In this document: piece by piece, positions 44,605 to 61,715 of the stretch
Layout of the letters: each line of letters starts with the position of its first letter
Numbering within the stretch: the stretch's first letter is position 1
Assembly: GCF_002854065.1 (NCBI RefSeq)
Contig: NZ_CP024151.1
Direction: 5' to 3' (one strand)
Source: Escherichia coli
GTDB taxonomy: Bacteria; Pseudomonadota; Gammaproteobacteria; Enterobacterales; Enterobacteriaceae
DNA length: 64,000 nt
Made by a program: the position numbers and the translations under genes
The notes under the pieces: generated by a model
Told to the model about the DNA's origin: nothing
What the model saw: the letters and a program-made list of their open reading frames with translations, nothing else
Databases searched by the model: none

Positions 44605-45324
44605 TCACGCCGCCTCCCGGAGTTTGTTCGGCACCATCCATCGCTCCATCTCACGGACGGCATGACCGGCCTCCCTTGCCGCCATACCAGCCTCTGCGAT
44701 GACCTGCCAGAATGGCATATCCTGCCACTGCCAGCGTTCCATTCCGGCCAGTGACGGAAAACGCTCGCCCCACTGCCAGAACAGGGTTTCCAGGTCATGC
44801 TCTGCCACCCGGTCACTCCAGCGTGCATGCCAGCTTCCGACTGTTTCCGGTGAATGAAATGCCAGTTCGATTTCAGCCTGAGCGACCAGCGCCTGGTACG
44901 CACGGGCTTTCTGCTCTGTCTCCCTCGCCTGCTGGCGGCTGTACTTCTGCATGACCAGCGCGGATTTATGGCGACTGCGTTCCCTGACACGAAACCGCAC
45001 CGACGGGAACAAGCGCTCTGCTGCATCACCGGGAAGGGGAAGGAGGCAGACCTCGCCCTGTGTTTCAATCAGCACATCGATGGCATACAGCCACTGAAGA
45101 CGGTTGCCGTGCAGTTCTTCTGCGGTCAGGGACGGCATGAAAAATCGCAGGTCAGACAGCGATATCCTGCGGCTTCCGTTCAGACAGCGGAAAAACGCCC
45201 CCGCATACGGATATTCAGCCAGCGTGTTACCCTGATGGCGGCGTTTTTCGGTCTCCGCCACCGCCCGCCATGCGGCCTGTTGCTCTGTGCTGAGAGGAAC
45301 CAGTGCCTGTGAACGTGCGCTCAT
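44605..45324 (-). CDS. psiA: PsiA (plasmid SOS inhibition protein A)
   Basis: 239 aa; sequence pattern and position directly downstream of psiB, as in F/R100. Confidence 0.88.
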
Positions 45325-56841: not shown

Positions 56842-57768
56842 TCATCCGCCATAATGCGCCACCTTGTCGACTATCCACGCAGGTCCGGTGACTTCCGGCA
56901 GCTCATCGTCATCTGTCGGGGAAGACCATTCAAGTTCCCCCCACAGCACATCAACGAGCTCTCCACGCTCATACAACTGCCAGCCACAGAAATTGCAGCC
57001 TTGTTCGGCGTACCAGTGCTCCAGCGTGCAGCTGAAACGGCGGCTTAATTCTGCAACAACGTCGCTTTCCGGCTGACACCACGGCGTGTCGAAATCCACC
57101 TGAATGAAGTTTTCTCCCTGACTGCTGATATTCAGGTCATACCCACAAGGCCACTTCACGCCATACCGTTCGGTATACCAGTGATATGCAGAAGGAACAC
57201 CGTTCAGAACACCACCGTTAAAGCCATTCACTTCAACATCCAGGCGGGTCGGCAGAACCGTCAGCAGGTCAAACGGCATGGTTTTTTCCGGCAGCACGTT
57301 GTCACACAGACGGTTCCACCACACCGATACATCCTCGTTACCCCAGATGTCACACCAGTCACCTCTTTTTGCGGTGAAATGCACAGTGATGATTTCCCTG
57401 ACATCATCCGGTAATCCTTCCCAGCGACGCTGTCCAGTACCGCTCTGCAGCCAGAGTTTATGCAGCATCAGGCAGTTTTGCTCATCCAGCAGTACACCGT
57501 CCTGCAGGTATGTCAGCCAGCGGGTGAACGCGATATTCTCCGGCGATACAACGCCACGCCCGGCAGCCGTCAGTCCGGGGCATGGTTCAAACCGCACATC
57601 TTCAGTGGTCTGCAGAAGTCCGGCACTTCCGGCCAGAAACAGCTGAATACCTTCATTTGTGGCGCGGCGATAAAGCGGTGTGACTGCACCGCTGGCCAGT
57701 CGTTTAATCTCAGCAATCTGTGCCGGTTCACCAGAAAAATGCATACGATTTGAGCACCAGTTTGGCAT
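56842..57768 (-). CDS. Conserved leading-region protein (DUF1281-like), unknown function
   Basis: 309 aa from MPNWCSNRMHFSGEPAQIAEIKRL...; SD AGGAGA before ATG 57768; Trp/Cys-rich. Family name from memory. Confidence 0.7.
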   Translation of the reverse strand: MPNWCSNRMHFSGEPAQIAEIKRLASGAVTPLYRRATNEGIQLFLAGSAGLLQTTEDVRFEPCPGLTAAGRGVVSPENIAFTRWLTYLQDGVLLDEQNCLMLHKLWLQSGTGQRRWEGLPDDVREIITVHFTAKRGDWCDIWGNEDVSVWWNRLCDNVLPEKTMPFDLLTVLPTRLDVEVNGFNGGVLNGVPSAYHWYTERYGVKWPCGYDLNISSQGENFIQVDFDTPWCQPESDVVAELSRRFSCTLEHWYAEQGCNFCGWQLYERGELVDVLWGELEWSSPTDDDELPEVTGPAWIVDKVAHYGG

Positions 57769-58122
57769 GGGAATTCTCCTCTCACATGCGGCCTCTATCA
57801 GGCCGTGCCGCACCTGTAACCGGGCGACCGCATACGAATGCAGGTGCGGCCCCGAAGCCGCAGCGCGTGGAGGAGGAACGACGAAACGTGACCGGGTGAG
57901 GAGGCCGGCGACAGCGACACACTTGCATCGGATGCAGCCCGGTTAACGTGCCGGCACGGCCTGGGTAACCAGGTATTTTATTCACAGAACCGTGCGCAAA
58001 ATGCTGTGGATAAGCTGGACACAGCAGTCCACAGCAGGCATACAGCCACACCCTCAGAGAATTGAGCGTTTTTTAGTCACAATAATGACATTTGACTGTG
58101 TGTGGATTCAGTTATTAGAATG

Positions 58123-58138
58123 CTGTATATACATACAG
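58123..58138 (+). promoter_or_regulatory. LexA (SOS) box overlapping the promoter of the dinI/umuDC-like operon
   Basis: CTGTATATACATACAG (CTGT-N8-ACAG) immediately downstream of TTGACT (58092..58097) and TAGAAT (58116..58121) with 18-bp spacing. Confidence 0.8.
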
Positions 58139-58161
58139 CAATAGAAAAGGGAGATGAGAAC

Positions 58162-58410
58162 ATGATCCGCATTGAAATTCTTTTCGACCGCCAGAGCACA
58201 AAAAACCTCAAATCAGGCACACTTCAGGCGCTACAGAATGAAATCGAACAACGTCTGAAACCACACTCCCCGGAAATCTGGCTGCGTATAGACCAGGGCA
58301 GCGCCCCGTCTGTATCTGTCACAGGAGCCCGCAACGACAAGGATAAAGAACGTATCATGTCTCTGCTGGAAGAAATCTGGCAGGACGACAGCTGGCTGCC
58401 TGCAGCATGA
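58162..58410 (+). CDS. DinI-family protein (ImpC-like)
   Basis: 82 aa from MIRIEILFDRQ...; resembles DinI; SD AAGGGAG before ATG 58162; first gene of the SOS-box operon. Confidence 0.75.
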   Translation: MIRIEILFDRQSTKNLKSGTLQALQNEIEQRLKPHSPEIWLRIDQGSAPSVSVTGARNDKDKERIMSLLEEIWQDDSWLPAA

Positions 58411-58844
58411 GTACCGTTTATCACCGTCCGGCTGACCCTTCAGGCGATGACAGTTACGTGCGACCGTTGTTTGCCGATCGTTGCCAGGCCGGTTTTCCTT
58501 CGCCTGCCACTGATTATGCTGAGCAGGAACTGGATCTGAACAGCTATTGCATCAGCAGACCTGCAGCCACCTTCTTTCTGCGCGCCAGCGGTGAATCGAT
58601 GAACCAGGCTGGCGTGCAGAATGGTGATCTGCTGGTAGTGGACAGGGCCGAGAAACCACAACACGGGGACATCGTTATCGCTGAGATCGACGGTGAGTTC
58701 ACCGTCAAACGACTGCTGTTGCGCCCACGCCCGGCACTGGAGCCGGTTTCAGACAGCCCGGAATTTCGCACACTGTATCCGGAAAACATCTGTATTTTTG
58801 GTGTTGTCACTCACGTGATACACAGGACGCGGGAGTTACGCTGA
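58407..58844 (+). CDS. UmuD/ImpA/MucA-family protein (LexA-like S24 peptidase, Pol V accessory subunit)
   Basis: 145 aa; C-terminal peptidase-S24 region with ...RASGESMNQAGVQNGDLLVVDRAEKPQHGDIVIAEIDGEFTVKRL...; overlaps dinI-like stop. Confidence 0.88.
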   Translation: MSTVYHRPADPSGDDSYVRPLFADRCQAGFPSPATDYAEQELDLNSYCISRPAATFFLRASGESMNQAGVQNGDLLVVDRAEKPQHGDIVIAEIDGEFTVKRLLLRPRPALEPVSDSPEFRTLYPENICIFGVVTHVIHRTRELR

Positions 58845-60114
58845 TGTTTGCACTGGCTGATATCAACAGTTTCTACGCCTCATGTGAAAAAGTTTTCCGC
58901 CCGGACCTTCGCAACGAACCGGTCATCGTACTCAGCAATAACGATGGCTGTGTGATCGCGCGCAGCCGGAGGCAAAAGCCCTTGGCATCAGAATGGGGCA
59001 GCCCTGGTTTCAGGTGAGACAGATGCGCCTGGAGAAGAAAATACATGTATTTTCCAGCAATTATGCGCTGTACCACAGCATGAGCCAACGGGTCATGGCT
59101 GTTCTGGAGTCGCTTTCTCCCGCAGTTGAGCCCTACTCAATTGATGAAATGTTCATTGATTTGCGGGGGATAAATCATTGCATCTCTCCGGAGGTTTTTG
59201 GTCATCAGCTCAGGGAACAGGTAAAGAGCTGGACAGGACTCACCATGGGGGTGGGCATTGCGCCTACAAAAACGCTGGCTAAAAGTGCACAGTGGGCAAC
59301 AAAGCAATGGCCACAGTTTTCCGGTGTGGTCGCGCTGGAGGCAGAAAACCGTAATCGGATCTTGAAGCTACTGGGGCTGCAGCCAGTTGGTGAGGTCTGG
59401 GGAGTAGGACGCAGACTGACGGAAAAGCTGAATGCGCTGGGTATTAACACAGCACTGCAGCTGGCGCAGGCTAACACGGCATTCATCCGGAAAAACTTCA
59501 GCGTCATTCTTGAGCGTACGGTACGCGAACTCAACGGCGAGTCCTGCATATCCCTGGAAGAAGCACCACCGGCAAAACAGCAGATTGTCTGTAGTCGCAG
59601 TTTTGGTGAACGAATCACAGACAAAGATGCCATGCACCAGGCTGTTGTTCAGTATGCAGAGCGGGCCGCAGAGAAACTACGTGGGGAGCGTCAGTATTGC
59701 CGGCAGGTGACGACATTTGTACGGACATCCCCCTTTGCAGTAAAAGAACCCTGTTACAGCAATGCCGCTGTGGAAAAGCTTCCATTACCCACACAGGACA
59801 GCCGGGACATTATTGCCGCAGCATGCAGAGCGTTAAACCATGTCTGGCGTGAAGGGTACCGCTATATGAAGGCAGGAGTCATGCTGGCTGATTTCACACC
59901 ATCGGGTATAGCGCAGCCGGGATTATTTGATGAGATCCAGCCCCGTAAAAACAGCGAAAAGTTAATGAAAACACTCGATGAACTGAACCAGTCTGGAAAA
60001 GGGAAAGTGTGGTTTGCGGGGCGAGGAACCGCCCCTGAATGGCAAATGAAACGGGAAATGCTCTCGCCTTCGTATACAACACAATGGACTGAGATCCCCA
60101 TTGCTTCATTCTGA
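58844..60114 (+). pseudogene. UmuC/ImpB/MucB-family Y-family DNA polymerase gene interrupted by a -1 frameshift near 58960
   Basis: N-terminus MFALADINSFYASCEKVFRPDLRNEPVIVLSNNDGCVIAR is in one frame (58844 onward, stops at 59017); the rest (AQPEAKALGIRMGQPWFQ... to ...TQWTEIPIASF) continues in another frame from about 58960 (track ORF 58993..60114). Confidence 0.7.
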
Positions 60115-60118
60115 TATA

Positions 60119-60547
60119 TCAGAATAATTTTTGCATTTTAAGGCGCACATCATTCATTGCCTCCTGCACCGAATCAGTAGCAGAAGGAGGCATTTTTTCA
60201 GCAGATTGCAAAGCACCGAGTTCAGTCAACACAGCTCTGATATCGGCCTGAGAAGGCTTCCATCCTGTCGTCTGACTGAGTAAGGTTACAACCTGATCTG
60301 CTGAAAACTCCTCGCTCAAAATGGCAGTCAGCAATACAGGCAGGCGAGGATCAAGTTGGTGTAACGCCATTCCAGAAATAAATGCATTCCGGAACAGCTC
60401 ACCACGCTCAGAACGCGGAACGGACTCTATCGCTTCCAAAGCTTGAAAGTCTGCAGCTTTTTCCGGATGCAGATAAAGTGTGAATTTTTTCCTTTTCCGT
60501 TCATCGTCCACAATATTACTCCTCTTTGAAAGCCGCGATAGCTTCAA
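60119..60547 (-). CDS. parR: ParR-like centromere-binding protein (StbB; type II partition)
   Basis: 142-aa ORF downstream of the actin-like ATPase; central region NAFISGMALHQLDPRLPVLLTAILSEEFSADQVVTLL aligns with R1 ParR as recalled. Confidence 0.7.
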   Translation of the reverse strand: MKLSRLSKRSNIVDDERKRKKFTLYLHPEKAADFQALEAIESVPRSERGELFRNAFISGMALHQLDPRLPVLLTAILSEEFSADQVVTLLSQTTGWKPSQADIRAVLTELGALQSAEKMPPSATDSVQEAMNDVRLKMQKLF

Positions 60548-61487
60548 CCAGTGCTGTCTGTGGCGACTCCATCATCACTACTTTTTGCCCAAGATGGTGC
60601 CATGCCGTTTTTATCGAATCATAGATCAACGGGGCCCCACCACCGACAACATAAACACGATTCACATGATGAAAATCACCGAGCTCATTGACTACTTGCT
60701 CCCCCAGACTGGCAATAGCCCCCTCAATGGTATTAAGGACCAGATCAGTTTTTGTTTCGTCATTTATAACCTGCCGAACAAAGTCCGGGTCATTACGACG
60801 TTTAATCAATTCATCTGCAACGAGGAAACTGGTATCACTGGATGCCATGCGCAATGCACTCATTGCAGCTTTCGTAACTGAAGACACACCAATGCCAGAA
60901 TTACCATGAATGGCACTTACAGAGTCAAATTGACCAACGATAACACCAACATCAAGCGTAGTGCCGCCAATATCAACTACCAGCGATTTTTCGAACTGAC
61001 CAACTTTATCCATGACCAGACGAGAAAACACAGCTGGCAATGATTCAGGCATCACATCAACGTGTTCAATGGTGAAAACATCGCCTTTATTAAGACGAAT
61101 CGGCCTCATTAAATTCTCAATTTTACGCTGAATGTTGAGTTCATTTTTTTGACACTCTTTCGTGTAGAACTCACTGATAGGCAAAGTCACAGTCAATGAT
61201 ACAGGCTGAGGCGCTAATCCACTATTCAGTAAAGCGTGATGCACAGCTAACAGGTTAACATCCGTATATTGATACTCAATATGAGTCGTAAGAATAGATT
61301 GGTTGCTAACTTCATCATACGTGTATTTTTTACCATCCAGTTCATAGTTAAATGTCTGGCGAATCCCTAACCCGTCAACCTTCCATCCATGACGAAATGA
61401 GTTTTGCGACAACGACTTACAGATTTTCCCATTGTCATTCCATGCCAACTTGATTGTTGTTGAACCATCATCGCAGTATACGTTCAT
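60516..61487 (-). CDS. parM: ParM-like actin-type partition ATPase (StbA)
   Basis: 323 aa; MNVYCDDGSTTIKLAW... N-terminal phosphate-1 motif, ...VDIGGTTLDV... and ...VYVVGGGA... actin-fold motifs. Confidence 0.88.
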   Translation of the reverse strand: MNVYCDDGSTTIKLAWNDNGKICKSLSQNSFRHGWKVDGLGIRQTFNYELDGKKYTYDEVSNQSILTTHIEYQYTDVNLLAVHHALLNSGLAPQPVSLTVTLPISEFYTKECQKNELNIQRKIENLMRPIRLNKGDVFTIEHVDVMPESLPAVFSRLVMDKVGQFEKSLVVDIGGTTLDVGVIVGQFDSVSAIHGNSGIGVSSVTKAAMSALRMASSDTSFLVADELIKRRNDPDFVRQVINDETKTDLVLNTIEGAIASLGEQVVNELGDFHHVNRVYVVGGGAPLIYDSIKTAWHHLGQKVVMMESPQTALVEAIAAFKEE

Positions 61488-61715
61488 CTATAGCCCCTTA
61501 AATACTCAATCTGAGTAAATCACTGTTTCTGGTTGCAAGGTAATACTCAATTTGAGCACTATCATAGTTATGAAATCACAAAACACAAGTAATATTTATT
61601 ACATCATATGACATACTTCATATTTCATACTTCATAAATATGAATGCATGTTGACACATCAGGTTACCGTGTCAAAATATCATCATACTTCACACATCAC
61701 ATTTATGAGGTTGCA
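61488..61715. promoter_or_regulatory. Divergent promoter/centromere region between the parMR-like and parAB-like operons
   Basis: AT-rich intergenic region with short direct repeats (CATACTTCATATTTCATACTTCATAAATATGAA; TGAAATCACA motifs) between divergently transcribed partition operons. Confidence 0.55.

Follow-up and report, generated by a model that had tools for sequence, protein, structure and literature searches.

In the stretch of Escherichia coli DNA analysed here (64,000 nt of contig NZ_CP024151.1; hereafter the window), the plasmid gene impB, which encodes the catalytic UmuC-like subunit of the LexA-controlled ImpCAB system, very probably represents a recent, vertically inherited loss-of-function allele. 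The gene (58844-60114, + strand) is one C short of the intact allele encoding WP_000457518.1, to which it is otherwise identical, nucleotide for nucleotide. According to an initial annotation, a umuC/impB-type Pol V gene in this region has lost one nucleotide close to its 5′ end and is thereby broken. The list of open reading frames (ORFs), the Pfam searches and the alignment to intact alleles all agree with this reading. Comparison with intact homologues leaves one C missing from a CCC run as the sole lesion.

The affected gene is the last of an impC-impA-impB (dinI/umuD/umuC-like) operon, which occupies positions 58162-60114 in the leading region of an F-type plasmid. Based on the ORF list for 57000-61500 and on the raw sequence, the three genes lie on the + strand in the same orientation. 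The first, impC (58162-58410, + strand), encodes an intact DinI-like protein of 82 aa (Pfam PF06183 DinI, E=1.1e-16), annotated as WP_001775014.1 in records that are 100% identical to the window. It is followed by impA (58407-58844, + strand), which encodes an intact, UmuD-like self-cleaving subunit of the S24 type with 145 aa (Pfam PF00717, E=3.3e-24) and scores 143 bits against the NCBIfam model NF007621 of the UmuD subfamily, whose cut-off is 110. Its product corresponds to WP_000109071.1 in the window-identical records, and the same protein is found in R64 and ColIb-P9. The annotation of both genes in these identical records bears out the earlier statement that the dinI-like and umuD-like genes upstream of the lesion are intact. 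The stop codon of impC overlaps the impA start in ATGA (58407-58410), and that of impA overlaps the start of impB in TGATG (58842-58846), an arrangement to be expected if the operon is translationally coupled. Both the gene order (dinI-like, umuD-like, umuC-like) and this coupled arrangement are those of an impCAB-type SOS operon.

Positions 39001-64000 of the window match pDETEC81 (NZ_CP116170), a conjugative plasmid of the IncFIA/FIB/FIC type from Guangzhou, at 100% identity, and are also nearly identical to the Shenzhen plasmid p886Rt_hybrid (NZ_CP080082). The annotation of these 25 kb is that of a classical F-type leading region, with traA, traY, traM, hok, psiB, a parB-like gene and ssb, together with methyltransferases, ardA-type antirestriction, a DUF1281 gene, impCAB, stbB/parM and an integrase. 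The plasmid ssb (48128-48580, − strand) encodes an SSB of 150 aa, whereas that of a related F plasmid has 179 aa; the 29-aa in-frame deletion lies between PQ-rich repeats in the disordered linker and affects neither the OB fold nor the acidic DDIPF tail. The absence of psiA from the PLSDB gene table of an identical plasmid had raised the suspicion of a second pseudogene, which was rejected, as the psiA ORF (44605-45324, − strand, 239 aa) is intact and ~99% identical to annotated psiA. The gap in the table arises because the table is incomplete.

The regulatory region of the operon also appears to be preserved. A sigma-70-type promoter-like site (TTGACT, 18-nt spacer, TAGAAT; 58092-58121, + strand), recognized by a consensus scan with 10/12 matches, precedes the impC ATG by ~40 nt and presumably acts as a promoter. 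The predicted primary LexA (SOS) box, TGCTGTATATACATACAGCA (58121-58140, + strand), abuts its −10 hexamer, the box overlapping the promoter as in impCAB-type operons. Its core, CTGTATATACATACAG at 58123-58138, is the sole match to CTGT-N8-ACAG within the 64-kb window. The box is the same as the published impCAB LexA site of pTF2, TACTGTATATACATACAGCA, which has a heterology index of 1.60 (PMC12211044), except for an A to G change at position 2. A second, weaker LexA-box-like site, AACTGAATCCACACACAGTC, was read from the sequence at 58094-58113 on the − strand, where it overlaps the −35 hexamer and the spacer; the identical 20-mer was given a heterology index of 13.49 in the impCAB operon of pTF2 (PMC12211044), and both pTF2-type LexA sites are found in the window. 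In the same work, impCAB was reported to be LexA-controlled, with ImpA and ImpC induced 9- to 21-fold under SOS conditions (PMC12211044).

Position 58122, directly after the −10 hexamer, is G in the window and A in nearly all relatives (TGCTGT versus TACTGT). Among the frameshift carriers, the G is limited to a subset (the window, CP080082, CP116170, CP101797, CP045999 and L016), and is thus a later change inside the pseudogene lineage. It might slightly shift LexA binding or promoter strength.

The alignment and the codon table place the lesion at positions 58966-58967 (+ strand), where CC is left of an ancestral CCC in codons Ser41-Pro42 (AGC CCG). The nucleotides around it read GCAGCCCGGAGG in the intact allele and GCAGCCGGAGG in the window. 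Alignment to the intact gene of NZ_CP128593 shows one gap (intact ...GCGCGCAGCCCGGAGG..., window ...GCGCGCAGCCGGAGG...), and when this allele and a second frameshifted record, NZ_CP080082, were aligned to the window, nothing but one gap was found in the first 218 nt. The intact impB of NZ_CP128593 encodes 423 aa, reading ...VIARSPEAKALGIRMGQPWFQ.... The remaining CC falls inside the range 58960-58968 to which the nucleotide loss had originally been assigned, while some details of that assignment need correction. The lesion affects codon 42 (Pro42, CCG) and does not lie within the first 40 codons; the deleted base belonged to a short C run, reduced from C3 to C2, where no homopolymer had been recognized; and the true local peptide is ...VIARSPEAKALGIRMG..., with SPEAK rather than the N-AEAK of the expected ...IAR-N-AEAKALG....

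The division of the gene between two frames, with the N-terminus in one frame to 59017 and the remainder in another, was correctly described at the outset. The 5′ ORF (58844-59017, + strand) encodes the 57-aa product MFALADINSFYASCEKVFRPDLRNEPVIVLSNNDGCVIARSRRQKPLASEWGSPGFR, composed of native residues 1-41 and 16 out-of-frame residues before the TGA, and contains Asp6 and Tyr11. The rest of the protein is encoded in the −1 frame to 60114. The first in-frame ATG after the stop opens the 3′ fragment in the native frame, which extends from Met61 and comprises 363 aa (59023-60114, + strand). An earlier in-frame ATG at 58993 (Met51) defines an ORF of 373 aa in the −1 frame (58993-60114, starting with MGQPWFQ). 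The putative product of the 3′ fragment keeps Asp101/Glu102 and a sequence resembling the QPGLF clamp motif, and is devoid of Asp6 and Tyr11.

Domain searches treat the two pieces as parts of one protein. Pfam PF00817 (IMS) matches the first piece with profile positions 2-40 and the second with positions 49-146; the second piece also carries IMS_HHH, IMS_C and DUF4113, and the domains of the UmuC/ImpB/MucB subfamily (PF00817, PF11798, PF11799, PF13438) are found across both fragments. Positions 62-421 of the NCBIfam profile NF002955 (Pol V subunit UmuC) match the 3′ fragment, and the repaired or intact ImpB reaches 790.9 bits with this model over its full length, with a cut-off of 431. Given these collinear IMS and UmuC matches, the two pieces are a single Y-family polymerase gene split in two, and not ORFs that arose by chance. 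Asp6 and the SIDE sequence (Asp101/Glu102) align with the conserved DxD/F aspartate and the SIDE of solved Pol IV structures. No single uninterrupted frame holds all of the catalytic residues, since D6 and Y11 are encoded in the 57-aa ORF and D101 and E102 in the −1 frame. Judged by its sequence, the locus is a UmuC-family gene by membership, but a pseudogene. In NZ_CP080082, the PGAP/RefSeq label is “Y-family DNA polymerase”, pseudo, “frameshifted”. The impB pseudogene is, in other words, already flagged by public annotation and is an ordinary one, with no new biological feature.

The lesion would have arisen by loss of one C from the CCC run at codons 41-42, most simply via replication slippage. 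Translation from the native start would then go out of frame after residue 41 and halt at codon 58, cutting off Asp6 and the steric-gate Tyr11 from the remainder of the palm (Asp101/Glu102), the thumb, the little finger and the C-terminal domain. Products initiated at Met51 (58993) or Met61 (59023) would be devoid of Asp6 and Tyr11, and hence of a complete active site. From established Y-family enzymology, we infer that no polymerase-competent ImpB can be made, as no single polypeptide would contain the full active site. With impC, impA, the promoter and both SOS boxes still in place, ImpC and ImpA should continue to be produced under SOS conditions, but the locus should confer neither UV protection nor mutagenesis. 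A plasmid-borne Pol V, with the associated UV protection and SOS mutagenesis, should not be attributed to carriers of this plasmid lineage. Likewise, gene calls that present the 57-aa and 363-aa ORFs as separate proteins mis-annotate one pseudogene.

A residual function of the downstream fragment deserves consideration. Ribosomes could re-initiate at Met61 and produce a catalytically dead ImpB comprising residues 61-423, retained as a binder or modulator, although we regard this as unlikely. Such a truncated ImpB might bind ImpA′/UmuD′, RecA or the beta clamp and modulate the host Pol V in a checkpoint-like or dominant-negative manner. The layout is favourable, as the TGA at 59015-59017 is overlapped by AGGTGA (59012-59017) and followed five nucleotides on by the ATG at 59023. 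Moreover, the 363-aa ORF is predicted by gene callers, the little-finger domain, DUF4113 and the QPGLF clamp-like motif are kept, and very few substitutions occur in the 3′ part across carriers. However, low divergence is equally expected of a very young pseudogene, and the Shine–Dalgarno-like sequence and the ATG are native codons (FQVRQM) in all intact alleles. In addition, ~60 residues are missing, including the first catalytic Asp, and the fragment may well misfold. A more specific proposal is that the dead Met61 fragment, together with SOS-induced ImpA and ImpC, could sequester UmuD′, RecA or the beta clamp, dampening the mutagenesis or toxicity of the host Pol V and aiding the lineage; this we consider quite improbable. 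If it were true, the dampened Pol V would be advantageous for the plasmid lineage and would account for the hundreds of samples in which the lineage has come to occur.

Long-read assemblies err most commonly by single-base indels, and the lesion site is a homopolymer, though of 3 nt only. It could be argued that the plasmid in reality carries CCC with impB intact, and that the missing C is a homopolymer miscall or an assembly artefact. The distribution of the allele in public data makes this very improbable. A megablast search with positions 58100-60150 against PLSDB retrieved 3,803 plasmid records. In the seven best of these, the match spans 2,051 nt and no polymerase CDS is listed, whereas in all those ranked below it spans 2,052 nt and a “Y-family DNA polymerase” is listed. 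Allele counts were obtained with an 80-nt probe centred on the lesion. In PLSDB, 9 of 2,327 records matched this probe at 100% and carry the frameshift, and the other 2,318 have the extra C; in complete RefSeq E. coli genomes, the match was 100% in 6 of 1,679 matching replicon records, with ~1,672 of the 1,679 being single-frame. The nine carrier plasmids were sequenced in different projects and originate from human, swine and caecal isolates and from Hong Kong wastewater, so the same deletion has been found in complete plasmids from different laboratories and sources.

The allele is not restricted to complete plasmids. In a collection of 15 billion proteins, the exact 57-aa product was found on 304 contigs (421 index blocks), derived from NCBI drafts, Logan assemblies of SRA runs and ENA assemblies, one of them with a SPAdes-style NODE contig name. 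An exact look-up of the 373-aa downstream ORF in the protein collection gave no match, because gene callers start at Met61; the resulting 363-aa ORF is called by them in public assemblies. All eight of the loci that were fetched show the same two-ORF layout. These eight independent loci also share one frameshift haplotype, including the linked T58766, which is synonymous in impA. Close intact F-type alleles have C at this position, and among F-type haplotypes T58766 occurs only together with the deletion. Four PLSDB records that combine T58766 with an intact CCC were considered as a possible ancestor and rejected, as they represent a distant haplotype with ~27 differences.

A deletion tied to a specific SNP haplotype is unlike a random miscall, and the lesion site, as read from the sequence, is neither a Dam (GATC) nor a Dcm (CCWGG) motif. 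The explanation by sequencing error was rejected on the grounds that the allele is haplotype-linked and recurs in independent assemblies of complete, draft, short-read and metagenome type. Read-level data with an extra base that restores a single frame, the outcome that the initial annotation had named as contradicting its claim, are very unlikely, because the identical allele is present in nine complete plasmids and on ~300 contigs of independent assemblies.

Recoding by the ribosome is extremely improbable. A programmed or leaky −1 frameshift on CAA_AAG (58973-58978) would restore a 423-aa ImpB in which SPEAK is changed to SRRQK at residues 41-45; a −1 slip at any point from 58967 to 59014 would have this effect on the frame, and A_AAG is the best candidate. 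The A_AA.G tetramer, which is the most shift-prone in E. coli (PMC4066793), does lie past the lesion and ahead of the stop, in the phase required. However, a bare tetramer shifts at ~0.15% without a stimulator, compared with a background of 0.11%, and rates of a few per cent require a strong pseudoknot downstream of the tetramer (PMC4066793). In the window, the predicted folding of the 72 nt downstream is no better than that of shuffled sequences (z=+0.64), and GGAGG is directly adjacent to the motif instead of ~10 nt upstream. Unlike programmed −1 frameshift genes of the dnaX or IS3 type, the locus has no X_XXZ_ZZN heptamer, its A_AAG being bare. The motif is ordinary coding sequence in every intact allele, and so has not been selected for recoding; nor is the two-frame arrangement conserved, as more than 99% of relatives, including the 2,318 of 2,327 PLSDB records counted above, have a single frame. 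With no heptamer, no structure and no conservation of the arrangement, a programmed frameshift was rejected. Phase variation is likewise at odds with a tract of only C3 and with the finding of no “on” allele on the marked F-type haplotype, all sampled “off” alleles belonging to one haplotype except for one mosaic strain.

The preferred reading, a recent and inherited loss of impB function, is also consistent with the age and distribution of the allele. A search for further decay of impB revealed no extra substitutions in the window and two variable impB sites among eight other carriers, indicating that the pseudogene is young. Over 25 kb, the closest relatives (at least 99.6% identity) are all frameshifted and those at ~97% are intact, a pattern consistent with the allele having originated once, in an IncFIB/IncFIC sublineage. 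The allele would have arisen once on an F-type impCAB haplotype and then spread with the IncFIB/IncFIC plasmid lineage, and recombination would also have carried it onto I-complex backbones. According to PLSDB metadata, all nine complete carriers come from China or Hong Kong (Guangzhou, Shenzhen, Hong Kong, Nanjing, Zhejiang, Henan and Wenling), which suggests a regionally circulating plasmid lineage.

Two mosaics among the carriers indicate recombination after the allele arose. In strain PM4-5, both an IncFIB/FIC plasmid (NZ_CP096835, L007) and an IncI-gamma/K1 plasmid with NDM-5 (NZ_CP096831, L006) are frameshifted. Here the frameshift lies inside an identical I-type patch of ~1.3 kb (58052-59360), which is without T58766 and has the private SNP C58837; outside this impC-impA-impB patch, each plasmid follows its own backbone. 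The patch could result from gene conversion between the co-resident plasmids or from a consensus-polishing artefact. A single origin is thus not proven for every carrier, PM4-5 needing recombination, a second event or a polishing artefact. The second mosaic, L023 (a Logan contig of SRR12935221), joins the F-type frameshift haplotype to an I-type impB 3′ end and I-type stbB/parM, with a recombination breakpoint at 59955-59994, inside the pseudogene. The deletion at codon 42, combined with T58766, may serve as a clonal marker for the IncFIB/IncFIC lineage and for its recombination with the I-complex.

The inactivation of impB is not unique to this lineage. A second frameshift allele (P0002, P0003 and P0007) encodes 288 aa and loses the frame near residue 197 (...TEKLQGWVLTQ...), which, being distinct, indicates that impB has been inactivated independently more than once. 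Many other partial impB proteins exist in public data, and in 1,599 of the 3,803 PLSDB records (~42%) the match extends over less than 80% of the query operon. In I-complex plasmids, impCAB has been reported to be under purifying selection, with a dN/dS of ~0.11 for impB; over-expression of impCAB is toxic, and an impB knockout had no effect on conjugation (PMC10286972). The decay of impB fits this reported toxicity. The allele described here adds to the examples which suggest that the gene can be dispensed with and decays often.

With regard to known systems, the closest are the impCAB loci of TP110 and the IncI1 plasmids R64 and ColIb-P9 and that of the Shigella flexneri virulence plasmid, which share with the window the gene order, the overlapping codons and the LexA box (Lodwick et al. 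1990 and Runyen-Janecky et al. 1999, as cited in PMC12211044). Their neighbours are also the same, with the DUF1281 gene upstream and stbB/parM downstream. Between R64 and the window, 24 differences were counted over 58100-60055 (~99% identity). Unlike the TP110/R64 type, the window has an impB with a one-nucleotide deletion at codon 42 on an F-type (IncFIA/FIB/FIC) backbone, and its impB 3′ end and stbB are F-type alleles, whereas those of the R64 type are I-type. The intact F plasmids that encode WP_000457518.1 (NZ_CP128593, NZ_CP116407 and NZ_CP082101) differ from the window within impB only by CCC versus CC, and outside it by three to four SNPs, including T58766 and G58122. Compared with other decayed impB genes, the codon-42 allele has a different lesion and is clonally spreading. 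The chromosomal umuDC (Pol V) shares the UmuC and UmuD subfamily models and the LexA control with impAB; in contrast to umuDC, the operon of the window is plasmid-borne, begins with an extra dinI-like gene and has a pseudogene in place of its catalytic subunit.
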